DNA of 64,000 nucleotides, taken from assembly GCA_041739995.1 (NCBI GenBank), contig JBGSMV010000080.1, positions 34,738-98,737 on the forward strand, read 5' to 3'. Shown in pieces: positions 1 to 30,372 of this stretch. Origin of the DNA: Bdellovibrionota bacterium. Its GTDB lineage: Bacteria; Bdellovibrionota_C; UBA2361; JBGSMV01. The first letter of the stretch is position 1. The number at the start of each line of letters is the position of its first letter. Below the pieces are notes generated by a model. The model was not told the DNA's origin. It worked only from the letters and a program-made list of their open reading frames with translations, and ran no database searches. Both the position numbers and the translations under genes were made by a program.

Positions 1-505
1 GAGTGTCGATATTAAGACAGTGATTGATCAGTACGGAAGTCTCTCACATCTCGACTTAGGCGACATCCTGCGTGGAGACGTCGAACGCAATCGTGACGCC
101 TATGACGTTACTAGGCTGATTCGATTGCCGCAGCTCATCACTTCCGAGTCCCACGTATACGACTTTCACCTGAGTCGGACCGAGCCGAATTTTATTACTC
201 AACGTCGCGTCAGCGAACTCGTGGTACTAGAGGACGAGATTCTTAATCAGGATCTCTCAAGGCGAATCGTGTTTATTCGCAGCGCTGACCCTGGATATGA
301 TTGGCTGTTCTCTCGCAACATCGGAGGATTAGTCACCATGTACGGTGGCGCAAATTCCCATATGGCGATACGTTGCGCTGAGTTAAGTATTCCGGCTGTT
401 ATCGGGTGCGGTGAGAAGAACTTTGAGTCATGGAGCCGCTCACGTATGCTCGAGATTGACTGCACGAATCGATTAGTCAAAGTGCCTAGCGATCTTCCAT
501 CGTAG
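1..505 (+). CDS. C-terminal part (5'-truncated by the window edge) of a PEP-utilising-enzyme family protein that ends in the phosphohistidine swivel (mobile) domain. Having the His domain at the C-terminus matches rifampicin-phosphotransferase / glutamine-kinase-like members rather than PpsA
   Basis: The frame is open back to position 2 with no upstream stop. The motif GGANSHMAIRCAELSIPAVIGCGE matches the PEP-utilisers mobile-domain consensus (GGxTSHAAIxARELGIPAVVG) including the catalytic His. The stop at 503-505 abuts the next start (ATG 507). Confidence 0.6.
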   Translation, partial: SVDIKTVIDQYGSLSHLDLGDILRGDVERNRDAYDVTRLIRLPQLITSESHVYDFHLSRTEPNFITQRRVSELVVLEDEILNQDLSRRIVFIRSADPGYDWLFSRNIGGLVTMYGGANSHMAIRCAELSIPAVIGCGEKNFESWSRSRMLEIDCTNRLVKVPSDLPS

Positions 506-506
506 T

Positions 507-1082
507 GTGATGATTCCGTATCGTCCGAATTACCTTGCTGATTCCTGTGTTCCAGTAGTCTGGATTACTGGCCTTGCGGGTGCGGGCAAGACGACCCTTG
601 CAGACCGCGTATGGGCCGAATTGCGTCCCACACTTCCAAATATTGTGAGACTCGATGGTGATGCGGTCAGAGAGATCTGGGGGGGAGAACTTGGATACAC
701 TCTCGAAGATCGCATTACGAATGCGGAGCGCCTAAGCCGCTTGGCTCTGTGCCTCCATCGGCAGGGGCTTGTAGTAGTCTGCTCGACCATGTCGCTCTAC
801 CCGCAAATTTGGGACTGGAATCGTGAGCATTTTAATTCGTATATTGAAGTGTACCTGCGCGTTAACATGGAGGTGCTTCAAGCTCGCAACAAGAAGGGGC
901 TTTACTCAACCTCAAATGCTGATGACGGACAAACAGTGGTAGGACGTGGCCAGGAATTTCATGAGCCCACCGCAGCGCACCTCACACTAGTAAACGAGAC
1001 AGTGGAAAACCTGGAATCTAATGTTATTCAAATCGTTCAGGCGATTAGGCAGAGCATGAACCTCAGGGGTCAGATATTATGA
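507..1082 (+). CDS. Adenylylsulfate-kinase-like P-loop kinase (CysC family). It may be a true APS kinase making PAPS, or a CysC-homologous nucleotide 3'-kinase such as a cytidine diphosphoramidate kinase
   Basis: Walker A GLAGAGKTTLA; LDGDAVR; DRxxNxxRL; C-terminal ARNKKGLY that resembles the CysC RDxKGLY motif. It is divergent from canonical CysC around the FTGIxSPYE region. It overlaps both neighbours, which suggests an operon. Confidence 0.65.
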   Translation: MMIPYRPNYLADSCVPVVWITGLAGAGKTTLADRVWAELRPTLPNIVRLDGDAVREIWGGELGYTLEDRITNAERLSRLALCLHRQGLVVVCSTMSLYPQIWDWNREHFNSYIEVYLRVNMEVLQARNKKGLYSTSNADDGQTVVGRGQEFHEPTAAHLTLVNETVENLESNVIQIVQAIRQSMNLRGQIL

Positions 1083-1846
1083 AACAGGGCGATTTTACAG
1101 ACTTGGCGAAGAACTACATCAATCGCCCTGGGTACTCGGCAAATGTATTGCGTGCTCTCGCAGAATACACTGGTGCGCGGAAATCTTCTCAGTTTCTCGT
1201 TGCTGACGTTGGTGCGGGAACCGGAAAGCTAACTGAGAACCTTGTCGAGCAGGAGCTCAAGGTCGTCGCTATCGAACCGAACGACGCAATGCGCGAAGAG
1301 GGCATGCGCTATACGGCTCCGCACCAAATTCCCTGGTCTAAGGGGAGTGGAGAGTCCACCGGTCTAGCTGCCACCTCGGTAAATTGGGTGTTGATGGGGT
1401 CGTCCTTTCACTGGGTCGACTTAAAGCTTGGCCTCGCTGAGTTTCACCGGGTACTAAAGAAAGGGGGTCATTTCACCGCACTTTGGAATCCGCGAGATTT
1501 GGAGCGTAGCGATCTACACCGTCGCATCGAAGAGCGTATTCATTCAATTGCCCCAAATATTTCCCGGGCCTCCTCCGGAGCCGGCAAATACACCGCCACC
1601 CTATTCGACGATCTCGTATCGACTGGACACTTTAAAGAGCCACTTTTTGTCGAGGCACGTCATGAAGTCGTGATGACGCCCGAGCGTTATCTCGGCGCAT
1701 GGCGTTCGGTCAATGATATTCAGTCACAGGCAGGGCCAGAGAAGTTCGCCGAAATTCTCATAGCGGTTGAGAAGGAAATCGCAAGTCTCAGCGAGATCGT
1801 CGTTCCGTATAAAACAAGATCATGGACGGTCCAGCGCGTCGATTGA
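1079..1846 (+). CDS. Class I SAM-dependent methyltransferase
   Basis: SAM-binding motif I VADVGAGTGKLTE, acidic motif II VVAIEPND and a Methyltransf_11-like length of 255 aa. ATGA overlap with the upstream gene. Confidence 0.7.
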   Translation: MKQGDFTDLAKNYINRPGYSANVLRALAEYTGARKSSQFLVADVGAGTGKLTENLVEQELKVVAIEPNDAMREEGMRYTAPHQIPWSKGSGESTGLAATSVNWVLMGSSFHWVDLKLGLAEFHRVLKKGGHFTALWNPRDLERSDLHRRIEERIHSIAPNISRASSGAGKYTATLFDDLVSTGHFKEPLFVEARHEVVMTPERYLGAWRSVNDIQSQAGPEKFAEILIAVEKEIASLSEIVVPYKTRSWTVQRVD

Positions 1847-1863
1847 TCGGGAGTTAGAAGTCA

Positions 1864-2592
1864 ATGAAAGGGATTGTTCTTGCCGCCGGTGAAGGCTCCC
1901 GACTCCGTCCACTCACCGACGATCGGCCCAAATGCATGGTGGAATATCGCGGGAAGCCGATATTGGACTACACCATCGAAGCCTTTCAACAGGGCGGATT
2001 AGCTGAAATTATCGTTGTCGGCGGCTATAAAGCCGAAGCGATTCAACGTTCCAGTGTTCGGAGTTATCTAAATCCACGATACGCAAGCACCAATATGGTG
2101 CACACGCTCTTCTGCGCCGAGGAGGAACTCACAGACGATATTATAGTGTCTTATGGCGACATCATTTATCATCCCGACATATTGAAAACGCTTATTGCTG
2201 ACCCCGGCATTATAGTTGTCGTGGTTGATAATCGCTGGGAGGAGCTGTGGCGACGTCGTATGGCTGATCCGCTCAGCGATGCAGAAACCATGAAGATCGA
2301 TCCTTCGGGGAATATCGTTGAGCTTGGGAAGAAACCGAATTCGTATGCGGATATACAGGGGCAGTACATAGGTCTATTCAAACTCGCGCGAAGCATCCTT
2401 CCGCAAATTCGAGATTTTTATCACTCGCTTGATCGCACGGCTCAATATGATGGAAAGAGCTTTGATCAGATGTATATGACCAGCTTCCTTCAGTTAATTG
2501 CCGATCAACTTCATCCAATTCGCGCGCTTCCTATTGAGGGAGGCTGGCTTGAGATCGATTCCGAGACCGATCTGGAGTGCCAGGCGGTTTAA
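1864..2592 (+). CDS. Sugar/phospho-substrate nucleotidyltransferase (LicC-like / CTP:phospho-X cytidylyltransferase family)
   Basis: N-terminal GIVLAAGEGSRLRPLTDDRPKCMV is the nucleotidyltransferase signature (G-x-G-x-R-L). It is 242 aa, the size of LicC-like cytidylyltransferases. Confidence 0.65.
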   Translation: MKGIVLAAGEGSRLRPLTDDRPKCMVEYRGKPILDYTIEAFQQGGLAEIIVVGGYKAEAIQRSSVRSYLNPRYASTNMVHTLFCAEEELTDDIIVSYGDIIYHPDILKTLIADPGIIVVVVDNRWEELWRRRMADPLSDAETMKIDPSGNIVELGKKPNSYADIQGQYIGLFKLARSILPQIRDFYHSLDRTAQYDGKSFDQMYMTSFLQLIADQLHPIRALPIEGGWLEIDSETDLECQAV

Positions 2593-2613
2593 GGTGACCC
2601 ACGCTTTGTAGCG

Positions 2614-4287
2614 CTATAGTGCTTTTAACACCGCGTCAATCCCTAGCCTATCGTAGTAACCCGCGATCCGTTCTGAGCCCTGCCTACTTTTTGAACCTTG
2701 AACGACTGCGTGAAAATCACTGACTGCTTCATGACCTTCTGCAGAATCTGGCGCAACGCGTAATAGCAATCCGCCTGCGGCATAACGAGCAATGCGGCTT
2801 CTCGATTGCGCCACACGACGAAGTCGATCAATCGCATATGCTTCATGGGTACGGTGCAGAAGGAGCTGCAACGCAAGATGACACTCAAGAATCGGGAGTT
2901 CGTCAACAAGCATGCAGTATTTCTGGAGCACCTTCTCAAATTCGCCAAATTGAAATTGCGGTTGCTGAAAATTACGGCGAATAGAAGAAAGCATGCTCTC
3001 GATCCAGAGATCGCGCGCCACGGTGAAAACGCTCAGATCCCACGTGAATGCGGGTATGACAGGTGCTATCGAAAGATCGTATCGAGCTTGGTGTTCTGTT
3101 CTCACCACACTTGCCACCAATGCGTAGCGGTTCAGCACACTTTGAGAATTGGCACTTCTCCACCGCTCTGCTCTTCCAGAGGTTGCTGCAGAATTTGGGT
3201 AGGCAGTCGCCTTTGCGCGTTCCGAGTTGCTCACCGCGGATTGAATAGCTTCGTCGCCTCGTTCGATCTCAAGAAACGACACTAAGCCACGCACCGCCCG
3301 TAGCGCACGATCGGGGTCCGTAAGATCCTCAAAGTAGAGGTGCATCAGATTGTCAGTGGGAACGCAGACTTCGAGAAATGTCTCTACCAAGAGCCACTCT
3401 TCAATCGTCGCCTGTCCAAAGATTCCTTCGCCGCCGTTCGTGGGAAGGTCAAGAACGTCATCCACACAAATCTCAGTCGTGTTTGATTGCAGGTTATTCT
3501 GTTTCGAAATACACACGTCACGTGGATCGCGAACGATTCGAACATGCTTCTTTCCGCTAAAGATCGCGGGCGAGAGGCTATGGGAAAACTGTGCCCCTAC
3601 ATCAACTTCGAAGGAGAAGTCCCGCCGACCACCCTGACGGACGACTATCGGCAAACAACTCGTCAGCCATTCGTGATGCTGCTCAAGCAGCCGAAAACTT
3701 CCTGCATGGAAGCGGAACATATCGTGAAAGCGTCCAAAATAGGTACATATTCCCAATTCTAGGAGCAAGTTCCATGTCTTATAAGTGCCACTGCACTCCA
3801 TGGACGAGAATTGAACCTCGCGAAGAAACGCACCATCGGCTACTCCCTCTGAGACTAAACAGATGCCATAAAGCGCCGACGAATTGAGGATAACTTTTGC
3901 CGGATGAAAGTCAGGGCGCAGTTCTATGAGTTTCTGGAGCAGAAGAGGTCCAAGATTGGGTTCGCCCGCGGAGCAAGCAGCCTGCGCCGCGTACCACAGA
4001 ATGCGCATCCCGGGGAAACCCATCTCGAGCGCCTTTATGAGATGCCCAAGTGCGACGGAAAATTCTCTCGCGCGGTAGGCGAGAACTCCAAGCCAGAATG
4101 GTCCGAATGGATCAGCGGGGTGTTGAACCGAGAAGAGTTGTGCCGCCGATCGGATCTCGGCAAGGTCTGCGTTTTCCCCTAGCTGACTATCTTCAACCGC
4201 AAAGATGCGTGAGCTTTCAACATTTCGGCTATGACGAAAGTGCTCAAGGTATTGTCCAAAGATGTCCAAACCAGACTGGTCTGTCAC
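2614..4287 (-). CDS. Sulfotransferase-domain protein with an N-terminal helical-repeat region
   Basis: VRIVRDPRDVCIS resembles the 3'-phosphate-binding RDPRD motif of sulfotransferases. LYFEDLTDPDRALRAVRGLVSFLEI matches the typical C-terminal Y-E-D-L-x-x-P...FLG sulfotransferase segment. 557 aa. Confidence 0.5.
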   Translation of the reverse strand: MTDQSGLDIFGQYLEHFRHSRNVESSRIFAVEDSQLGENADLAEIRSAAQLFSVQHPADPFGPFWLGVLAYRAREFSVALGHLIKALEMGFPGMRILWYAAQAACSAGEPNLGPLLLQKLIELRPDFHPAKVILNSSALYGICLVSEGVADGAFLREVQFSSMECSGTYKTWNLLLELGICTYFGRFHDMFRFHAGSFRLLEQHHEWLTSCLPIVVRQGGRRDFSFEVDVGAQFSHSLSPAIFSGKKHVRIVRDPRDVCISKQNNLQSNTTEICVDDVLDLPTNGGEGIFGQATIEEWLLVETFLEVCVPTDNLMHLYFEDLTDPDRALRAVRGLVSFLEIERGDEAIQSAVSNSERAKATAYPNSAATSGRAERWRSANSQSVLNRYALVASVVRTEHQARYDLSIAPVIPAFTWDLSVFTVARDLWIESMLSSIRRNFQQPQFQFGEFEKVLQKYCMLVDELPILECHLALQLLLHRTHEAYAIDRLRRVAQSRSRIARYAAGGLLLRVAPDSAEGHEAVSDFHAVVQGSKSRQGSERIAGYYDRLGIDAVLKAL

Positions 4288-4422
4288 GGTATCCGCCTAT
4301 AGCGAAGTGTAATCACGCAGCAATGCTGAACCCTTCCAATCTATAATGAAGCTTGCAGAATCGCGCCAGCAAAAGTGATATAGCATCGAGACAGAGGACG
4401 AACTCTCAGACCGTCGCTAGAG

Positions 4423-5124
4423 TTAAGATGAAATACTCAATATCTTGATGATTTTAATGTTCCACAGCAACTGTAGACCATTCGTATTCATACGAACGCC
4501 GTCCACTGCAGCAGTCCAAGAGCGCAGCTTGTTCTCCTTGGCCGGAATATCAAATGGCATCACCTGTTCGTCTACGTCGCAGCGCCACCCCAGCTCAGCA
4601 AGCCTCGCACAGAAGAGACCGAGAGGATACTGGTTGAACCCCGTGTGCCACTCACTGCTCCCCACACGCCGGTATTTGAGGGCGACCTCGAAATCGAAGT
4701 CATTAAAAACTCCAGTGATTACTGCGAGACCGCCCGGTCGCACATGGCGCAGGATATTCAAGGCAACGGGGATGGGGTCAGTCCAATACGAGAGAAGCGA
4801 TGTCGCGGTGACAAGATCAAATTTCTCGGAAAGACTGAAGCTTTCGGCATCGCCTACTTGAAACTCGATTTTCTGCGCTTCAAACCGTTTTTTTGCGCTC
4901 GCGATTAGCTCCTCCCCAATATCAACTCCTACTTTTCTCCCCGTAGGGAATACACTCTGGGAGAGGTGTGCGAGCAGTTCCCCGCTCGCACATCCAACAT
5001 CGAGACAGGATACCCCTTTGGCCACGTCGAAATGCGCGGTGGCAATCGAACTAATCCGTTTGAAGAGATCTTTAACTTCGAAGTGCGCGTCGTCTTGAAC
5101 ATGAAAATTGGAGGGGTTTGTCAT
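4423..5124 (-). CDS. Class I SAM-dependent methyltransferase
   Basis: Motif I CLDVGCASGELLAHL. The start was moved to internal Met (MTNPSNF) because the longer N-terminal extension in the ORF track is low-complexity. Confidence 0.6.
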   Translation of the reverse strand: MTNPSNFHVQDDAHFEVKDLFKRISSIATAHFDVAKGVSCLDVGCASGELLAHLSQSVFPTGRKVGVDIGEELIASAKKRFEAQKIEFQVGDAESFSLSEKFDLVTATSLLSYWTDPIPVALNILRHVRPGGLAVITGVFNDFDFEVALKYRRVGSSEWHTGFNQYPLGLFCARLAELGWRCDVDEQVMPFDIPAKENKLRSWTAAVDGVRMNTNGLQLLWNIKIIKILSISS

Positions 5125-5325
5125 AGCGGTCCATGAACTAGTTGCTGATCCAGTCAAAGAGAGAAGACTTGGGCTGTGGGGAGCTAACCGGTTTGTACAC
5201 AACCCATGGTGCAGCTACCCAAAAATACTCATAATTTCGCGAATCCTTGGTCATTTTCGCAGACTCGAAACATAGAGAGTAGTGGTACGTTTAGTGAATA
5301 GTATCAATTAGGTACATGGATTCCG

Positions 5326-7533
5326 ATGTCTCAGACTAGAGTACTGTTCTACGTTCCCTATGGGGGCTGGACTGTCCACAACCAGGTGGAAGCCGCTATC
5401 GCTTCCGCGCTCAGGGTTCGGGGCGCCGAAGTTATGGTGGTTGGGTGCGACGGCCTATTCTCGGAACGTTGTTATATTCTTAGTGGTTCTAAAACACCCG
5501 AAGCCGACTGCGCCCATTGCACAAAAACTGGGGTAGATTTTTTTGGAGCATTTCAATTACCGCTAGTGCAACTACGCTCGGCCCTCCAAAAGGGCGACTA
5601 CGATGGGATCGATAGCTGGCTGAACGATCAGGATCCTGCGCACTTCCCCGAGCTCACTTTTGAGGAGATTCCTGTTGGTAAACTGACTTCACCAGCAGTA
5701 TGTGGGTTTCATACGATAGGTCCCACCCTGCTCCGAGAAGCCGACCCGCAGTACACGCATCGGCTTTATCTGAAATATTGGCTGCTCACCTATGCCGGAC
5801 TCAATCGAATATTCGAACAATTCAAACCAACTCACACGGTCATTTTCCACGGAGCTGGTTTCTCGCATTCAGCAGCACTTTCACTTTCGAAAAAACGTGG
5901 GGTACCGATAGTCACGCATGAGAAGGGCTGGGTACCTCGTTCCTTCCTGATGGCGATCGATGAAACCGTGATAGGACCTTATTCGCGCGCAAAGTCTTCA
6001 CGAGCCTGGCTTCCGTACCCCTTATCTGCAGAGGAGGTGAAAAAGGCAGGGGAACTCTTTACCGACTGGGAGGAAGGCAAGAATAGGGTCACCGGACGAT
6101 TCTTTTCCTATTCAACCGATCCTACTCGCCTGCGGGAGCATCTTGGAATCCCCTCCGATGCCAGAATTTTCTCCGTCTTTACCACCAGCGAGCATGAGAT
6201 CCTTTATCTGGATGAATGGGGAATCTTACATGAACAAGTTCTGATGATTGAGCGTCTCGCCGAGATATTTCGTTCGAGAAAAGAATACTTAGTTATCCGT
6301 CACCACCCAAACGTCTGTAACCCTCTTCATCCAGGTCCCGACTCAGATTACCTCGAGAGGCTGCTCGCACTTTCGCAGCGACTTCCCTCAAATGTGCGAA
6401 TGATCATGCCGTATGAGTCGGTAAATTCTTACAGCCTCCTCTGGCATAGCGACGCCACTTTCTCGACAATCTCCACCATTGGTCTTGAAGCCGTCGCTCG
6501 CGGCATTCCGAGCGCTTCGCTTTCATGTTCAAGTTTCAGCGCTTCGATGCAAATGACTCTCGAATCGCTCGAACCTTCCGACCTCGAAAGAATGGTCAAC
6601 GATCTCCTATCGACACCTCTGAGCGCCTCTCTCGAGCAAATAGCGAAGGCCTATCGCGTCCTTTTCACGCAGATGTTTAGGTTTCCCCTTACCTTTAAAA
6701 CCATTGGTGTCGACGAGAACCGGAGGCCTGAGATTAAGATTGAATCTGTAGAGCAACTTCTACCTGGTGCAGATCCGGTGATGGATCGAGTATGCGACTA
6801 TTTCCTGAGGGGAACTTCTCTGCATGAGATTCCAGGTGACAACGCGCAAAATCGTAACGAGCATGATGAACGAAACGCTCTCGCCGAGGAGCGCGAGCGC
6901 TTCGTGCAGGCACGCGCGTTAGCTCGCGGGTCAGCACAAACTCAGGCGCCGCTCCCACTTTCAATGGCCGTGGTACTCGCTCGATACACCGATGGAGAGG
7001 CTCAGCAGCCGTGGTGGCTGGGCCGCCAAAGGACTAAACAATACCGCTTCTATCCCGCACAAGTACCCTCTCACGCTGACTGGCGAGAGCAGCTGATCTC
7101 GTTACAAAGAGTTATTATGGAACGCGAGGAAGCGCTTGTACTACCGGCACACCCGTCTTGCGAGTATGATGAATGCTTGATGCAATCGTCAAGCGAAGCC
7201 ATAAGCTGCTCCGAGCGTCACATTGACGCGGTGCTTTGGGGAGCATGGCTGTATGATAAGAATTCAAAGTTGATTAGCGGGGCCTATACTCCCTACCACA
7301 AAGTGAGTTCGTGGGAGGAACTCCTTAAGCATATGCCACAACTTGGAACGGTTACTGGGCAGCTAGGCCTGGGAGTATTCAGACGTGATTTTTTAGTGAG
7401 ACTCCTCTCTGAGATGGGCGCTGCGAAGAACGAGCAGGTTGCTGCCTTTGAACTATTTAGACTGCTCTCGGGAGATGCTGTACTTCGGCTCGAACAACCA
7501 ATGGTGTTTTATAAACAGGATCTCCAGGGATGA
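5326..7533 (+). CDS. Large 735-aa hypothetical protein. A central region resembles the C-terminal GT-B-like half of capsule-polysaccharide (KpsC/KpsS, beta-Kdo transferase) family proteins, making it a candidate CMP-ulosonic-acid transferase
   Basis: Long ORF in the operon with ATGA overlap to the downstream SDR. Segments HHPNV...PYESVNSYSLLWHSDATFSTISTIGLEAVARGIP resemble the Capsule_synth/TagF-like donor-binding half. The N-terminus VLFYVPYGGW...GAEV is Rossmann-like. The family assignment is from memory only. Confidence 0.4.
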   Translation: MSQTRVLFYVPYGGWTVHNQVEAAIASALRVRGAEVMVVGCDGLFSERCYILSGSKTPEADCAHCTKTGVDFFGAFQLPLVQLRSALQKGDYDGIDSWLNDQDPAHFPELTFEEIPVGKLTSPAVCGFHTIGPTLLREADPQYTHRLYLKYWLLTYAGLNRIFEQFKPTHTVIFHGAGFSHSAALSLSKKRGVPIVTHEKGWVPRSFLMAIDETVIGPYSRAKSSRAWLPYPLSAEEVKKAGELFTDWEEGKNRVTGRFFSYSTDPTRLREHLGIPSDARIFSVFTTSEHEILYLDEWGILHEQVLMIERLAEIFRSRKEYLVIRHHPNVCNPLHPGPDSDYLERLLALSQRLPSNVRMIMPYESVNSYSLLWHSDATFSTISTIGLEAVARGIPSASLSCSSFSASMQMTLESLEPSDLERMVNDLLSTPLSASLEQIAKAYRVLFTQMFRFPLTFKTIGVDENRRPEIKIESVEQLLPGADPVMDRVCDYFLRGTSLHEIPGDNAQNRNEHDERNALAEERERFVQARALARGSAQTQAPLPLSMAVVLARYTDGEAQQPWWLGRQRTKQYRFYPAQVPSHADWREQLISLQRVIMEREEALVLPAHPSCEYDECLMQSSSEAISCSERHIDAVLWGAWLYDKNSKLISGAYTPYHKVSSWEELLKHMPQLGTVTGQLGLGVFRRDFLVRLLSEMGAAKNEQVAAFELFRLLSGDAVLRLEQPMVFYKQDLQG

Positions 7534-8357
7534 AAACCGGTAGCGCCACCGCAATGTTTGATCTGACCGGAAAGGTGATCGTGGTCACCGGTGCTGCAGG
7601 TATCCTCGGCGGTCATTTTAGTCGTGCACTTGCGGGCAGTGGCGGCACCCTCGCACTTCTTGATCAACAACGACTCGAAGTCGAGGAACTCGCAAAATCG
7701 ATTGCCCTTGAGTTCGGTGTTGATGCGATTGGACTCCATTGTGACGTGACTGATCCGAAGTCTGTCATACAAGCCGTAGATCAGGTCGAAGACCGATTTG
7801 GTCACATCGATGTCTTACATAACAATGCCGCAACAAAGGGGAAGGATCCCCGTGCCTTCTTTGATCCTTTTGAGGACTTCTCTCTCCGTACTTGGCGCGA
7901 GATTATGTCGGTCAACATCGATGGGATGTTTTTAATGGCTCAGGCCGTCGGTCGAAAAATGAAAGCGAGAGGCAACGGTGGAAGTATAATTCAAACCGCG
8001 TCAATATATGGAGTCGTTGCGCCAGACCAGAGAATCTACGAAGGCTCGAACTACCTCGGAGGCACCATTAATACTCCTGCGGTATATTCAACATCAAAGG
8101 CAGCGGTCATTGGCCTTTCGCAACATCTTTCAACCTACTGGGGCCCACTTGGAATTCGAGTGAACACTCTCACCCCTGGCGGCGTGCAAAGCGGCCAAAA
8201 TGGTGAATTTGTGCGCAAGTATAGCGAACGAGTCCCGCTCGGACGCATGGCAACACCCGATGACCTTAGTGGCGCACTGGTATACCTCGCATCCGACGCT
8301 TCTCGCTATGTAACGGGGCAGAATTTGGTGGTCGATGGAGGCTTCACCGTTTGGTGA
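7530..8357 (+). CDS. Short-chain dehydrogenase/reductase (SDR) family oxidoreductase
   Basis: Cofactor-binding VIVVTGAAGILG; catalytic YSTSKAAVIGL (YxxxK); 275 aa. Confidence 0.8.
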   Translation: MKTGSATAMFDLTGKVIVVTGAAGILGGHFSRALAGSGGTLALLDQQRLEVEELAKSIALEFGVDAIGLHCDVTDPKSVIQAVDQVEDRFGHIDVLHNNAATKGKDPRAFFDPFEDFSLRTWREIMSVNIDGMFLMAQAVGRKMKARGNGGSIIQTASIYGVVAPDQRIYEGSNYLGGTINTPAVYSTSKAAVIGLSQHLSTYWGPLGIRVNTLTPGGVQSGQNGEFVRKYSERVPLGRMATPDDLSGALVYLASDASRYVTGQNLVVDGGFTVW

Positions 8358-8372
8358 CCAGCAGGAGTTAGT

Positions 8373-9970: not shown

Positions 9971-9971
9971 G

Positions 9972-15358: not shown

Positions 15359-15360
15359 CC

Positions 15361-17998: not shown

Positions 17999-18090
17999 AG
18001 AAACACTACTCCTCGCCACTTTTAGATGCGGCGCGAGGCAGTATCGCCGCAAGGCGTTGTTGGCCCTAACTAGCTATAATATCTATATGT

Positions 18091-20242: not shown

Positions 20243-20331
20243 GTGCTAAGTTTATATTGTGTCCCATCAATCCCGAAAGTAATCTTTGCAGGCTTTGGTT
20301 CCGAAGCGCCCCTATCAGCCGTTAGAAAAGA

Positions 20332-21351: not shown

Positions 21352-21362
21352 AAAAACGCTCA

Positions 21363-22343
21363 CTAGGAGAAATGGGGGTGCCCCTGCCTCGCTTTTGCCT
21401 CGTAGGCTTGAGACATTTCGTCAAGAACGTTCAATGTTTTCTTACTCAATCCCTTCGCAAGCGCTTCTCGTCGATCGGTACGGCCCGAGGAAGGCTCTTT
21501 GCCCGGTAATTTTTCCCTCTTCTTAATCATCTCCATCGAAGGGAGGACAGGCTGCTGTAAGAACTTGGCCAAACGATCAACCTCAGCATCAGGAGAAACA
21601 ACCAAATCTTCGTATCGCAATTGAAAGACTTTCTCCTTCTCTGATGCCGCAAGCCGGGTCCATCGATCTTCCGAACGCTGAGCAATGGTGGCGATCGACC
21701 GAACAACTCGCTCCTCGGCCGAAACATCTGCATAGTCCTCAGCCCAATCTAAGGCGAACCAAGGCACCAACCCCTTCCCCTTTTTGAACGGAATGACGAA
21801 GCCCTTAGGGTCCGTTCCCCAGCGCCCACCCCAACCACGCTGCAACCAAGAAAAACAAAGATCCAAGGGGTGCCGATCTAAACGCACGACTCGAAGCTCC
21901 GGAAGGAAAGAGAAGAACAGATCGATGAAGGGGAGAACTTCGTGCATCACATAGGGGAGATAAGGAGGGTCCGATTGAAGCTTTGCCATGACCTCGGTGT
22001 CGTCCGAGCTTAAGCAGCGCTGGAGGTAGTCAGCAAAACGAGGCGACTGAACAACCGAAGATTTGTCCGATAGTCTGAAGTTCAGACCTCGACCAACCAT
22101 TAAATCATACGCGGTGTTGTCGAACTGAACTTGCAACAGAGAAGTCGCCGTTTCCCTTGAAATTTTTCCGAACGACTCAAGGAACGGGACATGCTCAAAA
22201 ATACTGTGGTATTGAAAGTGCTCAACATTCGAGATACCTGACAGCACGTTGGACACGAGAAACTTTCCGGAGCGAGTAACTCCTTCTACGAATAATATGC
22301 GCTCCACCAACCGAGCGCGATCTCCTAGCGGATAAGATTTCAT
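21363..22343 (-). CDS. Sulfotransferase family protein
   Basis: GVTRSGKFLV (5'-PSB-like), RLDRHPLD (3'-PB-like RxxRxPxD) and LRYEDLVVSPDAEVDRLAKFL (the typical C-terminal YEDL...FLG segment). Confidence 0.55.
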   Translation of the reverse strand: MKSYPLGDRARLVERILFVEGVTRSGKFLVSNVLSGISNVEHFQYHSIFEHVPFLESFGKISRETATSLLQVQFDNTAYDLMVGRGLNFRLSDKSSVVQSPRFADYLQRCLSSDDTEVMAKLQSDPPYLPYVMHEVLPFIDLFFSFLPELRVVRLDRHPLDLCFSWLQRGWGGRWGTDPKGFVIPFKKGKGLVPWFALDWAEDYADVSAEERVVRSIATIAQRSEDRWTRLAASEKEKVFQLRYEDLVVSPDAEVDRLAKFLQQPVLPSMEMIKKREKLPGKEPSSGRTDRREALAKGLSKKTLNVLDEMSQAYEAKARQGHPHFS

Positions 22344-22352
22344 AGATTCTAA

Positions 22353-24620: not shown

Positions 24621-24716
24621 ATCTCTCCTTCTCTCGCCTACCGCATGGAAACATGCCACGCCCGAACAAGAGAGCGCCTTAACATGATGCCTCAATGAAA
24701 GTGTGTTTGAAAGTGG

Positions 24717-25994
24717 CTATGGAGCAGGTGTTAGTGTCAGCAAGGGCTCCCGCTGACGAGCGACTCCAAGCCAAAGCGCGGCAAGCACCGAAGTAACCAC
24801 AGCGCTCAGAATCAAAGTGCAGGCGAACTCAGATGAAATAGCCCCTGCGGCAAGCGCCGTGGTCGCAAGCACAATCCCGGGCCCCCCACGTGCATTCATG
24901 CACACTCCGAAAGTAATGGCAGTAGAGGTACTCAACCCGTTAAAACGGGCACTCACAAATGCACCAATTATCTTTAGGGCGCTGGTCGCAAAGAGGAACA
25001 GAACAAACTGTGACAGTATGAAGTTCTCGCCAAGATGAAGGTTGAGCCCAACAAGAAAGAAGTAGACTGGCGCAAAATAAGCCATCACTATTTCTCGAAA
25101 GTGCTCGTGGGCCCGTTGCACACTTGCTTGGTCACAGGCTCGCGCTCCGATGCCGCCAAAAAATGCTCCGATGGATGGGTCAATACCTCCAAGGCGGGCG
25201 GCGGCTGCACACACCAGGCAAGCGATAATCAGAATGCTTAGAGGCGCAGGCTCAGGGGCATCTTGTTGAGTTGCCGATGAAATAGCACGATGAATACGGG
25301 AGCGCAGTTTGAGCACTTGGGCCAACAGCCTGGGCACCAAAAAAGGAAAGAGAAATACGAACACCAAGAAGGGCGCTCGAAATAGCATATCCATCCAGGT
25401 TGTCTCTGCTGCACCTGCTTGAATGGAGAAAGCCACGGCCAGCACTGCCTAAAGTAGGAGATCCTCTAACGTCGCGGTCGCAAGCACAATTCGTGCAAAC
25501 CGCGTCTGAAGGATTCCAAGATCCATAAAGATTCTGGTGATGACAGGGATTGATGTCACGGAGGCGGCTATAGCAATCATCAATAGCAACGAGACAGGGT
25601 CGCACTTCACTCCGCATAGAGTCTGATAATCAAGCGCGGGGACGATGAGCAATGCGGCCATAAAGGGAAGCACCGCGCTTCCGATCGCGAGTCCAAAGAT
25701 CGTCTTACCCTCCTTTCCAATCGATTTTCGACCTATTTCAAATCCGGCAACAAACATCAAAAGCACTGTACCGAGAGCACTCAGCAGAATAAAAACTGGG
25801 TTGGACTGAGCATTCTCCCCCCACAATATGCGGTGAGCTCCTGGAATCAATCGACCTAAGATATCTGTCCCAAGCAAAACGCCGGCGAAGATCTCACCAA
25901 CCACTCTTGGAATGCGCACCAGCTGGCACAACTGCCCAAGCCCTAACGCCACCGCAATCGCCACAGCCAGGGTGATGAACACGTCACCTACCAT
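24717..25994 (-). pseudogene. Cation/proton antiporter (Na_H_exchanger/CPA family) interrupted by a single in-frame TAG stop. It may be a pseudogene, a sequencing error or a read-through
   Basis: Two adjacent ORFs (25449..26090 and 24717..25445) lie in the same frame, separated only by the TAG at 25449-25451. Both halves are polytopic with CPA-like motifs (GEIFAGVLLG...; ...GGIGARA...), and together they are ~425 aa, a normal antiporter length. Confidence 0.55.
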
Positions 25995-26991
25995 CCGCCC
26001 CCCTGAGTGAAGACAGAATAACTTTTTCTCCGCTCTCACTTGCTTGCCTGCACGCAGCGATAAGGCGCAGTGTTTGAACTCCTTCGGCAAACGTGACCAG
26101 CGGATTCTCAGCGCCCTGAGCGCATTGAAGAAAGTGTCTCATTTCTTCTAGATACATCTGATTTTTATCAAGTAACGCGGGCGAATAGACTTGTTTTGTT
26201 GCTCCGTTAGCGAGCACCGTTACTATGTGCGAGATCCCATCCCACACAAGCGTCCCTTCCGACCCCACCACTCGACAGACTCGCGTTGGGTGACGCTGAA
26301 TCATATCAAGGTGGACTTGCACTCGCAGGCCACTTCCAAACTCGGCAATCAAGTTGACACAGTCCTCTACATCAATATCGAAGGTGCCTGATTTCCACGC
26401 GATCCCTTGAACCGCATGGACGTCTCCGAATAACCATTGAATATAGTCAAGCTCGTGACTGAGCTCCAGTAGTGCCCCTCCCCCAAGCTTGGCTATGGCA
26501 CTTGCTGATTTTGTATAGTCCTTACCGGGCCTCCAATCGGGAAGATATTGGCCAACTTCGGCCGAAGCGCAGACAAGCTTTCCAACAATGCCCTGCTCAA
26601 GAGATCGCTTGAATGCTCGCAATGAACTTGAGAATCGAAGGTGATACCCAACTAAGCAGATAGCCTCGCAACGCTCCAGGATTTTCGAAACTTCTGATAT
26701 CCCTTCATCGGAATGCGAAAGCGGTTTCTCCACTAAGGTGTGAATGCCGGCAGACAGTAATTCCTTTAAATAGGCAAGATGGGTACTGGAAGGCGAAGCG
26801 ATGATTGCGCCATGCAAGGGGGCGGTCAGCGCTTCAGCGATTGAGCTAACTGACTGGTCAGCAAACTCGATACTACCAACACTTCGCACCGAGGGCAGTA
26901 CAAGTATATGAGCCGCTGGAACCAAGGCCCTAAGATTATTCGCGTGACGTCGCGCGATGTTTCCGGCGCCCACTATCAGAAACCGAGACAA
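25984..26991 (-). CDS. Gfo/Idh/MocA-family NAD(P)-dependent oxidoreductase
   Basis: N-terminal Rossmann MSRFLIVGAGNIARRH and the ...EKPL... motif (LVEKPLS). 335 aa. Confidence 0.8.
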   Translation of the reverse strand: MSRFLIVGAGNIARRHANNLRALVPAAHILVLPSVRSVGSIEFADQSVSSIAEALTAPLHGAIIASPSSTHLAYLKELLSAGIHTLVEKPLSHSDEGISEVSKILERCEAICLVGYHLRFSSSLRAFKRSLEQGIVGKLVCASAEVGQYLPDWRPGKDYTKSASAIAKLGGGALLELSHELDYIQWLFGDVHAVQGIAWKSGTFDIDVEDCVNLIAEFGSGLRVQVHLDMIQRHPTRVCRVVGSEGTLVWDGISHIVTVLANGATKQVYSPALLDKNQMYLEEMRHFLQCAQGAENPLVTFAEGVQTLRLIAACRQASESGEKVILSSLRGADGR

Positions 26992-27009
26992 ACGAACCTC
27001 TCTGTAACT

Positions 27010-27921
27010 TCATGAGTTAAACGACATCGCACAGTGCATCTGCGGCTCTTGGGCTGTGACCACAGCCCCGCGAGCGAGCATTGAGTAGAACTCCCTTATG
27101 GTTTCCTCGATCGAACAAAAGAAGTGGTTCTTCTTTGGTGAACGAACTGCCGTGACACAAAGCTCCCAGTCCCCGCCACGACCATAATGTTGATACAGGT
27201 AAGATGTCATGAACAACCCGTACTTGTTTAGCCAGGAAGCCATTGCGATATGGTCCCACACCGACATGTCATCGGCTCCAAATGCGCCTAGCGAATGCGG
27301 TCGACTGCCGTAGCGCCATGCGGGGACAGCCACTATCAGCGAGCCAGAGCTCTTTAATGATCGACCTGCGAACGAGAAGAAATCATTTGGGTCATAAATA
27401 TGCTCAATCGCGTGGTTGGCGAAAATGAGATCATACTGAACATCTCGCGGCAAATCTTCAACCGTCGGCACAATGCGCGTATGAAAATGTTCGTTTCCAA
27501 ACGCAGCTCGACTTCGATCGATTTCGACGCCCCAGAGCGAGTTATGCTGGTTGGCAAGAAATTCAAATGAGCCTCCGATTCCGCATCCGAAATCCAGACA
27601 AGTTCCATTCGTGATGAGACGCGGATCATGCGCATTCATGACCAACCAGGGGAGGAATCGAATAAGTTGATGCGGCGCAAAGTCGATGTAGCCCGGTGAA
27701 ATCGAAGCACCCGAGTTCGCTGCAGAATCTGCGTATGCGCTCTCGAGCTCCGCTCTAGTTGGTCGAGGGCTTTGAAATACATATCCGCAAGATCCGCATA
27801 GCTTCCATGAAGGGCTATTAGAAATGGCCTTTCCCGCTTCTGAATGAGACCCCGAGGGAAGTTGAAGTCCTATGAGAGAAGCTGAGGCACAGCACGGGCA
27901 CTCTTGCAGAGTCAGCGTCAT
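27010..27921 (-). CDS. Class I SAM-dependent methyltransferase with an N-terminal Cys4 zinc-ribbon
   Basis: CPCCAS...CGSCGY zinc-ribbon-like Cys pairs. Motif I CLDFGCGIGGSFEFL and a post-I acidic residue. Confidence 0.65.
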   Translation of the reverse strand: MTLTLQECPCCASASLIGLQLPSGSHSEAGKAISNSPSWKLCGSCGYVFQSPRPTRAELESAYADSAANSGASISPGYIDFAPHQLIRFLPWLVMNAHDPRLITNGTCLDFGCGIGGSFEFLANQHNSLWGVEIDRSRAAFGNEHFHTRIVPTVEDLPRDVQYDLIFANHAIEHIYDPNDFFSFAGRSLKSSGSLIVAVPAWRYGSRPHSLGAFGADDMSVWDHIAMASWLNKYGLFMTSYLYQHYGRGGDWELCVTAVRSPKKNHFFCSIEETIREFYSMLARGAVVTAQEPQMHCAMSFNS

Positions 27922-28371
27922 AAAGTCCCTAGAAAATGTTCCGTTCAGAATAAGGCTAAGCTACTAAGATGAGGAAAAACGAGCAACAGATTCAACCGGT
28001 TGAGAGTACATGCGCGGCCTAGAGGAACCTCACGACGCACCCTAGAGCCACCTGCCCACTCAAAGCTATCCTGGCAATCGACGGCGCGCTTAAAGGTTCT
28101 GAGTGGAACTACAGTTTTTACCCTTCCTATTCACTAGACGAACGCTCAGGTCCCGACGGCGCAATACGCAAAGCGCACTCGATGAGCCTGAGAAGTGTGG
28201 AGCGCATCGAAAGGCACTTTGGTCAGCAGTAGCATTCCCGTAGGATTGCCCTCTCCAATAGCATCGAGGCCCTACACCCGGAGAACTCTATGTTACAAGG
28301 TGAGTAAGGCGACTACCCCCTATGAAGTTGACCCCTCAAATGAACTTCGTTTTTTGGGACAAGCGAGAGTT

Positions 28372-29496
28372 ATGAATATTCCTACTGGCCTTACCGCGAT
28401 TCCTTTCGGTTCGAAGCTCATTTCTGAAGCAACCCCAACCTTCATTATTGCCGAGATAGGCGTAAACCATAACGGAGATGTTGATCTTGCCCATAGGATG
28501 ATCGACGAAGCGGCGGCTACTGGAGTTGATGCCGTCAAGTTTCAAACTTTCCGTGCTGAGACACTAGTGTCTCGTGATGCCGCAATGGCTGAGTATCAGA
28601 AGAAGAATCTAGGGCACACGGGTACCCAGTTCGAGATGTTGAAAGGACTTGAGCTGCCGCTTGAATCGTATAGCGCGCTCAAGGAGCACGCTGAACGACT
28701 AGGGGTAGTCTTTCTTTCAACTCCATTCGACAAGGGCACTGCTGATTTTTTGAATACACTGGGTGTAGTTGCATTTAAAATCGGCTCCTCGGATACGGAC
28801 AACATCCCTCTACTTAGGCACATTGCTCGGTTCCATAAGCCCATGATTTTATCATCTGGCATGTCCGACATCGAGGAGCTTAGCGCAGCAGTTTCGGAGG
28901 TTTTAGCGTTGAATCAAGCTGTCGTCACACTTCAATGCACCACTGATTATCCTTGCGCTGCTAAGTATGCGCATCTCTCAGCACTTTCAACGATTCGAGA
29001 TCGCTGCAGAACTTTGGTTGGATTTTCCGACCATACTGAGGGCCTCTCTGCTGGGATTGCCGCGGTGGCTCTCGGAGCGGTGGTGATCGAGAAACATTTC
29101 ACCACCGATCGTTCATTGCCTGGGCCAGATCAAGTCGCCTCAAGCGAACCAGCAGAGTTCTCAGCGCTCGTTCAGGGCATCCGCAAGCTAGAAATCGAGG
29201 CTCCTAAGAGACGCCTCGCGCGAGTGAAGGCCTTTCCCGAGTTCGCCGAGTTGCTCGGAGATTCGAGCAAACAAATTGCAAAGAACGTTATTTCTTCGGG
29301 CGTTATGAAAGTTGCGAAGAAAAGTATCGTCGCTGCCTGCCGTATTAGTGTGGGAACTGCTCTCACAGAAGAAATGTTGTGTGTAAAAAGACCGAGCGGT
29401 GGCGTCCGACCGCTTGACTTCAGTCGTCTTCTCGGACGCTGCACCAATCGAGTTATTCAAGTCGACGAGCCCTTGAACTGGGAGGATCTTGTGTAA
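28372..29496 (+). CDS. neuB: N-acetylneuraminate / legionaminate synthase family (NeuB/LegI-like, with C-terminal SAF domain)
   Basis: FIIAEIGVNHNGD...AVKFQTF is the NeuB signature. A C-terminal SAF-like antifreeze-like domain is present. The start was set at the in-frame internal ATG (MNIPTGL), giving ~375 aa, the normal NeuB size. Confidence 0.85.
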   Translation: MNIPTGLTAIPFGSKLISEATPTFIIAEIGVNHNGDVDLAHRMIDEAAATGVDAVKFQTFRAETLVSRDAAMAEYQKKNLGHTGTQFEMLKGLELPLESYSALKEHAERLGVVFLSTPFDKGTADFLNTLGVVAFKIGSSDTDNIPLLRHIARFHKPMILSSGMSDIEELSAAVSEVLALNQAVVTLQCTTDYPCAAKYAHLSALSTIRDRCRTLVGFSDHTEGLSAGIAAVALGAVVIEKHFTTDRSLPGPDQVASSEPAEFSALVQGIRKLEIEAPKRRLARVKAFPEFAELLGDSSKQIAKNVISSGVMKVAKKSIVAACRISVGTALTEEMLCVKRPSGGVRPLDFSRLLGRCTNRVIQVDEPLNWEDLV

Positions 29497-30372
29497 GAGT
29501 GAATCGAAACTCTACTACAAGATTATAGGCCACTAATTACTTCATGAGAGGCTCCCATCTAAACGCTGGGAATGTGCTAAGAGAATCTCTCCCGTAGAAA
29601 GGGTGACTTCTGCCTGGCAGCGCGTCTTTAACTCCCCCCCTGACTCAATTTTAATCTCAAGGTTCGACTTTCCTGCATCAACCCGAGTCTCGATAGCGAG
29701 GTAAATGGGTTGATCAATTCTCCCATTCACATCTCCGTACTCACGCTGCTCTTGGATATTACCATTTACAGAAACGGTGCCGGTATGTTGCAGAGGCGTG
29801 CGCGTACAGATTTCCTTTGGACGCATATGCAAAGGAAGCCCCCTATCTCATCTTCGGCGCGAGGATGACATTGCTCTGAGTTCGAACTTGCGAGAGCCCC
29901 CGCTACTCTGACGAGCGCGAAAGGTAGAATCGTACCGTTGGGAACTTGAGCTACAAACGCGCACAATCCCAATAACATGATTGACATAACGGAAGCTCGA
30001 AGGCGCTTGTTCCAGATGGAACATGTCGCGGACGGGGCTACCCCACTGCGCAATTGAGCACGGAATCCTTCAAGCGCATCGAAAACTCTGCGGCTCTCAG
30101 ATTCGGGAAGGGCAGCCTACTGTGGTCAATGGCTCGATCAAGAAAGGGAGCTCGCTTTTCAAAAATTCGCTCTGCCAAAATCAGATGCTCACACTAACTA
30201 CTATACGAACATCAACCGACTTCGCGAACTAACGCTGTCAATAAAGGATTTCTATGTCTATTATAAGATGCGAGGCTTGTGCTTACGTCTGAAACGCTGA
30301 GATCGACTGAGTAGTTACGACACTAAAAATAGCCCTTTTTGAAGGTAATTAGCTGACTCTGTGATTTCCCAG

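Follow-up and report, generated by a model that had tools for sequence, protein, structure and literature searches.

A legionaminic acid locus of a Bdellovibrionota bacterium with predicted sulfation and phosphoramidate-donor modules

What sugar is made by a block of carbohydrate genes at the left end of a Bdellovibrionota contig segment, and do the sulfate- and phosphoramidate-activation genes of the block take part in its decoration? The block occupies positions 1–29500 of a stretch of 64,000 nucleotides (the window; positions 34,738–98,737 of the forward strand of contig JBGSMV010000080.1, assembly GCA_041739995.1). Nonulosonic acids (NulOs), charge-bearing sugars in the outermost position on many microbial surfaces, shape recognition by phages and hosts and between cells. 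A first-pass annotation, made from the sequence alone, had read the block as a locus for a NulO of the legionaminic (Leg) or pseudaminic (Pse) type with acetamidino, formyl, methyl and sulfate or phosphoramidate tailoring; this general reading is backed by hidden Markov model scores and by co-conservation. The sugar is predicted to be of the legionaminic type, made by a GDP-dependent route, and not Pse, N-acetylneuraminic acid (Neu5Ac) or 3-deoxy-D-manno-octulosonic acid (Kdo); the pseudaminic option falls, with all Pse models failing. The favoured reading, considered probable, is that three cooperating modules, comprising the Leg pathway, sulfation and a donor resembling O-methyl phosphoramidate (MeOPN), form one glycan-decoration locus. 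The evidence is genomic throughout and consists of protein families, motifs, co-linearity and co-conservation, from which substrates, the order of steps and the positions of the decorations are predicted.

The block comprises 29 open reading frames (ORFs) in seven transcription units, with the strand alternating from unit to unit. All of these ORFs, including those without a known family, have an in-frame codon bias resembling that of well-supported genes. The genes named in the first-pass annotation are intact ORFs where it had placed them, and their families hold in both Pfam and NCBIfam; of the five S-adenosylmethionine (SAM) methyltransferases that it counted, Pfam detects four in the block (1079–1846, 4423–5202, 18091–19023 and 27010–27921).

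The core of the block is a set of Leg-pathway genes. The LegC DegT aminotransferase gene (19073–20242, − strand) scores 497 bits on TIGR04181, above the cutoff of 420, and 235 bits on the PseC model, below its cutoff of 424. The NeuC/LegG-type hydrolysing NDP-sugar 2-epimerase (11123, or 11171, to 12325, +) scores 426 bits on TIGR03568 (NeuC_NnaA; cutoff 236). The predicted NAD-dependent 4,6-dehydratase LegB (20332–21351, +) reaches 471.3 bits on TIGR04180, missing the cutoff of 475 by 4 bits, and its runner-up model scores 164 bits. The predicted NulO synthase of the NeuB/LegI type (28195–29496, +; start probably near 28372) matches PF03102 (8.6e-82) and scores 379 bits on TIGR03569 (NeuB_NnaB; cutoff 400) and 244 bits on the PseI model (cutoff 340). 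The predicted CMP-NulO synthetase of the LegF/NeuA type (16052–16798, −) has 70 bits on PF02348 (cutoff 22.6), its best NCBIfam model being PseF (TIGR03584), with 160 bits, below the cutoff of 206. A gene of the Methyltransf_24 type (18091–19023, −; PF13578, 1e-16) lies within the LegC–PtmE–LegF operon.

The PtmE component of this operon (16958–18052, −) is a PtmE/LegX-type nucleotidyltransferase with two CBS domains (PF00571) and an NTP_transferase domain (PF00483), the architecture described for Cj1329 and Bresu_3267 (10.1101/2022.03.25.485807). PtmE/LegX has been proposed as a marker separating Leg from Pse routes (bioRxiv 10.1101/2022.03.25.485807; also PMC5378307). The gene thus suggests a GDP-dependent Leg route, with predicted formation of GDP-GlcN and putative GTP use. 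The short-chain dehydrogenase (7530–8357, +; PF13561, 6e-52) and the Gfo/Idh/MocA oxidoreductase (25984–26991, −; PF22725, PF01408) are PtmA-like and PtmF-like, respectively, by family and position, and match PtmA and PtmF in family and size (PMC4481668). Among the homologous genome and metagenome loci fetched for comparison (L-numbers), orthologs of the dehydrogenase occur in the L083 operon, beside the CMP-transferase and Gfo/Idh/MocA genes, and in L090 (58% identical); those of the oxidoreductase occur in L083 (43%), L081 and L090. NCBIfam scans of the window ORFs gave no candidate for PseG or PseH, and the best score on the PseB model was 56 bits (cutoff 408). The GDP-dependent legionaminic assignment is made because LegC and NeuC pass their models, LegB comes near its cutoff, PtmE/LegX is present and the Pse models fail.

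The genes of the block keep company elsewhere. In L083, an unrelated contig from a Joint Genome Institute (JGI) metagenome, one strand carries, in this order, genes for the Gfo/Idh/MocA oxidoreductase, LegF, the short-chain dehydrogenase, NeuB, NeuC, the formyltransferase, HisF, HisH, WbuX, PtmE, LegB, a fusion of pyruvate kinase with ATP sulfurylase (PK-ATPS), an adenosine 5'-phosphosulfate (APS) kinase, a sulfotransferase and LegC. Of these genes, fourteen have orthologs in the window, with 35–55% identity, and this co-linear recurrence is far beyond chance; it also settles, in favour of the locus, the matter of co-conservation that the first-pass annotation had named beforehand as a possible refutation. 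The genes for 3'-phosphoadenosine 5'-phosphosulfate (PAPS) synthesis and the sulfotransferase gene stand between legB and legC in the same L083 operon. Given the co-conservation, a sulfated Leg-containing glycan is the natural prediction. Clusters similar to that of L083 were found in L074, L073, L032, L007 and L099; in L074, the acetamidino and NulO genes come immediately after the sulfotransferase gene. The taxa with such clusters include Patescibacteria, Saccharibacteria, Elusimicrobia and Gemmatimonadota, among others. L081 and L082 possess, in addition, a CysQ-like Inositol_P gene; CysQ-like enzymes remove 3'-phosphoadenosine 5'-phosphate, the by-product of PAPS use. Many uncultured microbes share the formyl, acetamidino and sulfate tailoring genes as one recurrent unit.

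The acetamidino trio, which had been recognised as HisH/HisF/WbpG-type, is confirmed at 8373–11171 (+). It consists of a HisF/WbuZ-like cyclase subunit (8373–9296; 243 bits on the WbuZ model TIGR03572, cutoff 300, and 245 bits on TIGR00735), a HisH-like glutaminase subunit (9293–9970; 194 bits on TIGR01855, above the cutoff of 105) and a WbuX-type N-acetyl-sugar amidotransferase (9972–11171; 328 bits on TIGR03573, above the cutoff of 203). Behind NeuC, overlapping its stop by 11 nt, is the gene of a 236-aa sugar N-formyltransferase-like protein (12315–13025, +; PF00551), which keeps the N-x-H (INFHPG) and Asp (DTGDIL) motifs. Its L083 ortholog is 47% identical and directly follows NeuC, in an operon that has no acetyltransferase gene; the L081 ortholog is 30% identical and adjoins NeuC on the opposite strand, and L082, like L081, has a formyltransferase gene adjoining NeuC. 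No acetyltransferase appeared in Pfam scans of the window ORFs, and none of the reading frames of the 64 kb has an ORF with hexapeptide repeats. The core toolkit, which had been described as all present, is therefore confirmed for the genes that were listed and lacks a LegH-type hexapeptide acetyltransferase. Because LegH is absent and the gene is coupled to NeuC, the formyltransferase, previously taken for a tailoring add-on, probably substitutes for LegH by formylating the amine that LegC installs.

The sulfation module is centred on the PK-ATPS gene (22353–24695, −; PF00224, PF14306, PF01747), whose product consists of a pyruvate-kinase (PK) barrel, a PUA_2 domain and an ATP sulfurylase and likely starts at M26 or M39 of the ORF. 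The sulfurylase domain has an E-value of 2.6e-71 on PF01747 and 362 bits on NF003166. In an alignment of 22 sequences, the PK motifs RxNxSH, DTEG, SKIE and DRGDL and the sulfurylase motifs HxRNxxHRxHE and GRDHAG are invariant. Protein homolog searches, which covered a set of 5.8 billion proteins, found this architecture in more than 120 proteins, some of them fused to APS kinase as well; related proteins are encoded in at least 581 genome loci of bacteria, the candidate phyla radiation and DPANN archaea. No paper on the fusion was found in the literature. The ADP that APS kinase produces may be recycled by the PK domain with phosphoenolpyruvate (PEP). Neighbourhoods were counted in 80 of the at least 581 loci, each from a different species and all from genomes other than that of the window. 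A canonical APS kinase gene lies directly downstream of PK-ATPS in half of them (40/80), and 16 of the 80 species have a NeuB homolog no more than 10 kb away, for which a rough chance estimate is well under 1%.

The gene of the 326-aa sulfotransferase (21363–22343, −; PF13469, PF00685) begins 9 bp past PK-ATPS, with no APS kinase gene between them. The GxTRxGKF (5'-phosphosulfate-binding, 5'-PSB) and RxPxDLxxSW (3'-phosphate-binding, 3'-PB) motifs are kept across seven orthologs. Outside the window, these orthologs were found in L081, L083, L074, L073, L032 and L007 (34–42% identity), in all six cases beside both PK-ATPS and NulO genes, in a sample biased by the retrieval of the loci through PK-ATPS. 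The first gene of the sulfation operon encodes a SAM methyltransferase (27010–27921, −; PF13489, PF08241). The operon also contains a gene for a transporter of the CPA2/Na+–H+ exchanger type (24717–25994, −), which is interrupted by an in-frame TAG at 25449–25451. A homolog of the transporter adjoins PK-ATPS in 5 of the 80 loci, and in all five the codon is TGG (Trp); the TAG is either a G>A nonsense mutation, making the gene a pseudogene, or a sequencing error. The closest relative of the window PK-ATPS (54% identity), in L098 (GCA_025491055.1, 7675–13213), is likewise without an adjacent APS kinase gene and is preceded by genes for a sodium:solute symporter and a Sulfotransfer_3 protein.

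The left end of the block holds a further activation module. The choice between sulfate and phosphoramidate activation, left open in the first-pass annotation, resolves into both, as two separable modules with two kinase subfamilies. The reading frame is open from base 2, so that the locus extends past the left edge of the window. The partial gene at 2–505 (+), which starts upstream of the window, encodes the C-terminal 167 codons of a putative L-glutamine kinase, Cj1418-like (PRK05849 family), with a PEP-utilizers domain, a GGANSH phospho-His motif and 196 bits on NF004508 over profile positions 643–786 of 789. The product is 50–58% identical to full-length proteins of 796–801 aa in L084–L086, and a full-length ortholog in L047 scores 870 bits on NF004508, above the cutoff of 501. 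The next gene (507–1082, +) encodes an APS-kinase-fold kinase of the PRK05541 subfamily, with 162 bits on that model (cutoff 127) and 103 bits on the apsK model TIGR00455 (cutoff 138.7). The pattern is reversed in the APS kinases encoded beside PK-ATPS in L047, L083, L081 and L074, all four of which pass apsK and fail PRK05541, and there are therefore two distinct kinase subfamilies. The relatives of the 507–1082 kinase at 45–48% identity bear the JGI name ‘cytidine diphosphoramidate kinase’, and the enzyme is a candidate Cj1415-like 3'-kinase for cytidine diphosphoramidate, distinct from APS kinase. It is followed by genes for a SAM methyltransferase conserved within the module (1079–1846, +; PF08241; 50% identical to the module methyltransferase of L084 and 31% to that of L085) and a LicC-like nucleotidyltransferase (1864–2592, +; PF12804, NTP_transf_3), a candidate CTP:phosphoglutamine cytidylyltransferase (Cj1416-like). 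The top PDB match of the latter is the CTP:phosphocholine cytidylyltransferase 1jyk (6e-17); it is 48–55% identical to its L084–L086 partners and 38% to its L047 partner.

The same grouping occurs in other genomes. In L085 and L086, the kinase gene accompanies genes for a PPDK_N/PEP-utilizer enzyme of about 800 aa, a Peptidase_C26 protein and a nucleotidyltransferase; in L084 the set is complete except for the C26 gene. In L047 (5655–17248 of OZ244199.1, a Rhodospirillales metagenome-assembled genome), a Cj1415–1418-like set is interleaved with PK-ATPS and a true APS kinase gene, the second kinase there resembling the window kinase in passing PRK05541 and failing apsK. The best NCBIfam hit of the L047 C26 protein is gamma-glutamyl-CDP-amidate hydrolase, the function of Cj1417. 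The interleaved cluster means that at least two unrelated genomes combine a phosphoramidate with a sulfate donor system. Overall, the window module proteins are 48–58% identical to their L084–L086 partners and 38–43% to those of L047, and the gene content of the module appears to parallel Cj1415–Cj1420 of Campylobacter jejuni. The HisH-like protein of the acetamidino trio was considered as the missing Cj1417 and rejected, as it exceeds the cutoff of the HisH equivalog model and has HisF and WbuX as its partners. The L047 cluster also holds sulfotransferase-like and sulfatase-family proteins.

On the opposite strand lies the gene of an orphan 557-aa protein with a sulfotransferase-like core (2614–4287, −), a candidate phosphoramidate (or sulfate) transferase, and upstream of it on the same strand that of a SAM methyltransferase (4423–5202, −; PF13847, PF08241). 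Of the two sulfotransferase-like proteins noted in the first-pass annotation, the 326-aa enzyme is solid and the 557-aa protein marginal, its PF00685 score of 22.0 bits being equal to the cutoff. Its motifs are RIVRDPRDV (3'-PB-like) and CSGTYKTW (5'-PSB-like), and its in-frame codon bias is normal. An hhalign comparison with the family of the 326-aa sulfotransferase aligned the 3'-PB motif only, and PDB sequence searches gave nothing significant. Divergent sulfotransferase-type proteins are encoded in or next to the module elsewhere: 341 aa in L047 (PF00685), 435 aa in L085 (PF13469) and 398 aa in L084 (RNPxxR motif). 3'-Phospho-CDP-amidate is a structural analogue of PAPS. Because these sulfotransferase-fold proteins adjoin the modules and the donor resembles PAPS, we propose, by inference only, that they are phosphoramidate transferases. 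The Cj1415-like kinase gene contains a G7 tract (679–685), and a C7 tract (29634–29640) stands in the gap that follows NeuB. Poly-G tracts make the MeOPN genes of Campylobacter phase-variable; with seven bases, the window tracts are short and may have no meaning.

A candidate for the transfer of the finished sugar is the 735-aa product of the gene at 5326–7533 (+), which fold, motifs and gene neighbours assign to an undescribed glycosyltransferase family with a GT-B fold. It has no Pfam hit, and a PDB sequence search gave nothing significant (E about 0.6). It has 1713 relatives. Four cysteines (C41, C49, C62 and C65) are invariant, as are R325, H327 and P328 of the RHHP motif in the C-terminal Rossmann half, whose H326 occurs in at least 90% of 35 members. 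The AlphaFold (AF2) model has a predicted local distance difference test (pLDDT) score of 91.3, and Foldseek identified the GT-B fold, with the top target TM-scores for KpsC (0.52–0.53) and WbbB (0.42–0.44) and values of 0.27–0.38 for GT1 enzymes and 2-epimerases. The protein has an extra C-terminal alpha/beta domain of about 190 aa. In the family, 7 of 35 members weakly match Capsule_synth, and several carry TPR domains. Of 11 metagenome loci, 6 have the homolog beside NulO genes; in L090 and L091 it comes straight after a Leg-type operon. Because the modelled GT-B fold is closest to CMP-Kdo transferases and the genes neighbour NulO genes elsewhere, the enzyme is likely a NulO transferase with a predicted CMP-NulO donor.

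In the proposed pathway, PtmE/LegX, with the PtmA-like dehydrogenase and the PtmF-like oxidoreductase, would supply GDP-GlcNAc, which LegB would dehydrate and LegC aminate at C4. The formyltransferase would then, most likely, N-formylate the amine installed by LegC. NeuC/LegG would release and 2-epimerise the hexose, NeuB/LegI would condense it with PEP and LegF would make the CMP-sugar, while WbuX, HisH and HisF would turn the remaining N-acetyl group into an acetamidino group. The predicted product is a sugar of the Leg5Am7Fo type, the order of steps being putative. PK-ATPS would make APS, its PK domain plausibly regenerating ATP from ADP and PEP, and the 326-aa sulfotransferase would O-sulfate the NulO or a neighbouring sugar; the intervening APS kinase step is not encoded beside the sulfation module. 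The Cj1418-like kinase, the Cj1416-like cytidylyltransferase, the Cj1415-like 3'-kinase and the methyltransferases would make a donor of the 3'-phospho-CDP-amidate type, from which, as a PAPS look-alike, the orphan 557-aa sulfotransferase-fold protein would transfer. The 735-aa GT-B enzyme would pass the CMP-NulO to the acceptor. Some of the decorations may sit on neighbouring sugars, not all on one nonulosonate residue.

The competing explanations concern the sugar, the left-hand module and the placement of the decorations. That the locus makes pseudaminic acid, ordinary sialic acid or 2-keto-3-deoxynononic acid (KDN) is highly improbable: the top NCBIfam model of the CMP-transferase is indeed PseF (160 bits), and the NeuB_NnaB model covers Neu5Ac synthases too, but the PseB, PseC and PseI scores are far under their cutoffs, PseG and PseH are missing, the NeuC-type 2-epimerase, LegC, PtmE/LegX and a predicted LegB are all present, and a 4,6-dehydratase and an aminotransferase would be superfluous in a Neu5Ac or KDN route. 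The Pse, Neu5Ac and KDN readings were rejected on the model scores. It is less far-fetched, though unlikely, that 1–5202 encodes something other than a phosphoramidate pathway, the APS-kinase-fold gene being the APS kinase of the cluster and the PEP-utilizer enzyme and LicC-like transferase activating a different phospho-headgroup, for instance a CDP-linked alcohol or amino acid. The window indeed has no other APS kinase, the 507–1082 kinase still scores 103 bits on the apsK model, a Cj1417-like hydrolase is seen neither in the window nor in L084, and the best solved relative of the nucleotidyltransferase is a phosphocholine cytidylyltransferase. What speaks for the phosphoramidate assignment is that the kinase scores above the PRK05541 cutoff and below that of apsK, opposite to what all the APS kinases beside PK-ATPS show, and that both kinase types stand in the single L047 cluster. 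L085 and L086, moreover, tie the kinase to a PEP-utilizer enzyme, a C26 hydrolase and a nucleotidyltransferase, and the top NCBIfam hit of the L047 C26 protein is gamma-glutamyl-CDP-amidate hydrolase.

A possible but rather doubtful explanation is a mosaic glycan, in which the N-formyl/acetamidino Leg is made but sulfate, methyl and phosphoramidate groups sit on other sugars or polymers. There are parallels, as the Halorubrum N-glycan carries N-formyl-Leg beside a sulfated or phosphorylated hexuronic acid (PMC6137143), and MeOPN of C. jejuni is attached to N-acetylgalactofuranosamine (GalfNAc) and heptose, not to a NulO; the modules of the window are on separate transcription units, and 64 of the 80 PK-ATPS loci are without NulO genes. 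The L083 operon, with the PAPS genes and the sulfotransferase gene enclosed between legB and legC, argues the other way, as do the sulfotransferase gene immediately preceding the acetamidino and NulO genes in L074 and the six sulfotransferase orthologs, all beside NulO genes, albeit in the PK-ATPS-biased sample.

Several points weigh against the favoured three-module reading. The LegB, LegI and LegF scores are slightly or clearly under the curated cutoffs; the formyl group may be on either N5 or N7 (N5 in the Halorubrum case), and the sulfate, methyl and phosphoramidate groups could each be on the NulO or on another residue. No canonical APS kinase (TIGR00455) is encoded in the window, where tblastn with a canonical APS kinase found no other copy, and the PAPS supply is unexplained because of this. 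The sulfation module could be decaying, since the transporter gene of the same operon carries a nonsense codon. A sulfated prokaryotic NulO is absent from the literature searched, which supports novelty and leaves no precedent. In the phosphoramidate module, a tblastn search with the L047 C26 protein found no Cj1417-like hydrolase gene in the 64 kb, although one may lie upstream of base 1; the homolog search with the 557-aa protein, in the set of 5.8 billion proteins, returned only the protein itself, and its single-sequence AlphaFold model is unusable (pLDDT 41). The equivalence of PRK05849/NF004508 with the Cj1418 family and of PRK05541 with Cj1415 is putative and draws on names given by JGI.

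Comparison with known systems places the parts of the locus. The C. jejuni CMP-legionaminic pathway, as presented in papers citing Schoenhofen et al. 2009 (PMC4481668, PMC5378307), includes LegB, LegC, LegH, LegG, LegI and LegF with PtmE, PtmA and PtmF. The window shares with it LegC, the NeuC-type LegG, the CBS-nucleotidyltransferase and the short-chain dehydrogenase with its Gfo/Idh/MocA partner, together with a predicted LegB, NeuB-type LegI and CMP-synthetase, and the PtmF–LegF–PtmA adjacency of Plesiomonas recurs in the L083 homolog. Unlike the C. jejuni locus, the window has a formyltransferase instead of LegH, embeds genes for PAPS synthesis and a sulfotransferase, is divided into several divergent operons and has no flagellin or maf genes. 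Neither Wzx/Wzy nor flagellin genes were seen in the window, in agreement with the first-pass annotation, which had reported no Wzx/Wzy/flippase or flagellin genes. The 5-N-formyl-Leg producer Halorubrum sp. PV6 (PMC6137143) likewise has a Leg cluster with a predicted formyltransferase gene, whose number adjoins that of legG, and its mature glycan carries a sulfated or phosphorylated sugar. However, it is an archaeon, keeps LegH/NeuD, has neither an acetamidino trio nor PAPS genes in the cluster and bears the formyl group at N5. The acetamidino genes resemble WbuX/WbuY/WbuZ of Escherichia coli O145, WbpG and PseA/PtmG in that the amidotransferase and HisH/HisF-like subunits adjoin near NulO genes; the window HisF-like subunit differs in being under the WbuZ cutoff (243 vs 300 bits).

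Campylobacter is so far the only genus in which MeOPN has been demonstrated (PMC3907429, PMC6429109). With the C. jejuni MeOPN genes Cj1415–Cj1422 (PMC3907429, PMC11800397), the window shares a group of genes for two methyltransferases, a PEP-utilizer-type kinase, a candidate cytidylyltransferase, a predicted 3'-kinase with the APS-kinase fold and a candidate transferase of about 560 aa. The window, however, is not from Campylobacter and has no Cj1417-like hydrolase; its candidate transferase is an orphan with a sulfotransferase-like core, and the predicted module is linked to a NulO and PAPS locus and not to a Kps capsule locus. The 735-aa protein shares the GT-B fold, the RHHP motif and the weak Capsule_synth matches of its family with KpsC/KpsS, WbbB beta-Kdo transferases and GT-B sialyltransferases (‘HP’ motif), the equivalence of the motifs being putative; there is no significant sequence similarity, the four-Cys site and the C-terminal domain of about 190 aa are its own, and its gene associates with NulO genes, not Kdo genes. 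The eukaryotic O-sulfated sialic acids Neu5Ac8S and Neu5Ac9S (PMC9304399) share the concept of a nonulosonate sulfated by a PAPS-dependent sulfotransferase, but belong to another kingdom and involve another sulfotransferase family and another NulO. The literature searches turned up sulfated sialic acids in eukaryotes only and, for sulfation together with NulOs, bulk co-occurrence in sludge polymers.

What would be new here is a Leg locus in which formylation replaces one acetylation and PAPS-dependent sulfation is integral and evolutionarily conserved, joined to a MeOPN-like donor module. The conserved operon couples PAPS synthesis and a dedicated sulfotransferase to the Leg pathway and so predicts an unreported sulfated analogue of sialic acid in bacteria, which, if true, would be the first sulfated sialic-acid-like sugar outside eukaryotes. 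The prediction is specific and testable, with named enzymes and a target mass, and would surprise glycobiologists. The calculated monoisotopic masses are about 399.09 Da for sulfated Leg5Am7Fo, about 319.14 Da for Leg5Am7Fo itself (C12H21N3O7) and 334.14 Da for Leg5Ac7Ac. It could help to explain the common ‘sialylation’ and ‘sulfation’ signals in environmental extracellular polymers (PMC10483923). We suggest, tentatively, that a widespread and undescribed class of prokaryotic clusters makes an O-sulfated 5,7-diamino NulO, an N-formyl/acetamidino Leg derivative, with PAPS derived from the PEP-driven fusion, and that a sulfotransferase-fold enzyme here would also add phosphoramidate to the same glycan from 3'-phospho-CDP-amidate. 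The phosphoramidate-donor pathway, demonstrated only in Campylobacter, appears to have gene-for-gene counterparts in other phyla. The locus also suggests that the missing transferase of this pathway may be a sulfotransferase-fold enzyme. Two sizeable uncharacterised families are flagged, the PK-ATP-sulfurylase fusion and the NulO-associated 735-aa GT-B enzyme.

The operon of the acetamidino, NeuC and formyltransferase genes ends with four further genes (+). By Pfam, the first two encode a TPR protein (13225–13602) and a protein with an N-terminal BFD-type [2Fe-2S] domain and a C-terminal part of about 240 aa without a family (13632–14600); for the latter, no homologs were found in the fetched loci, and a PDB sequence search gave nothing significant. 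The other two (14579–15358 and 15361–15807) had no family in the Pfam scan. A 41%-identical homolog of the 259-aa product of 14579–15358 is encoded at 101–796 of the metagenome contig L087, directly upstream of a relative of the 735-aa glycosyltransferase, which hints that the two proteins may work together. A promoter and terminator scan of the window gave fewer promoter-like sites than shuffled sequence, an Rfam scan gave no RNA elements, and a search for long repeats and mobile-element ends found none.

Beyond the block, after a gap of about 960 bp behind NeuB, are genes for an Rrf2 regulator, an alginate-export-type outer-membrane porin (PF13372, 3e-63) and a GT4 glycosyltransferase (30459–33748, +; the porin and GT4 genes at 31034–33748), a group that might serve export and assembly in the same glycan system. 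At 37472–39879 (−), a full-length aldehyde dehydrogenase ORF (500 aa) is followed directly by a half-length one (302 aa, profile positions 2–211 of 461), which may be a truncated duplicate. Two small overlapping ORFs of 135 and 208 aa (41148–42178, +), by eye a DNA-binding protein and a nucleotidyltransferase-type partner, are possibly a toxin–antitoxin pair. The gene at 44800–46263 (+) encodes a calcineurin-like phosphoesterase fused to a SAM methyltransferase, and long ORFs without a Pfam family (763, 592, 582 and 407 aa) lie near glycogen-type genes (GH57, GT4/GT5, glucokinase) at 46454–62515.

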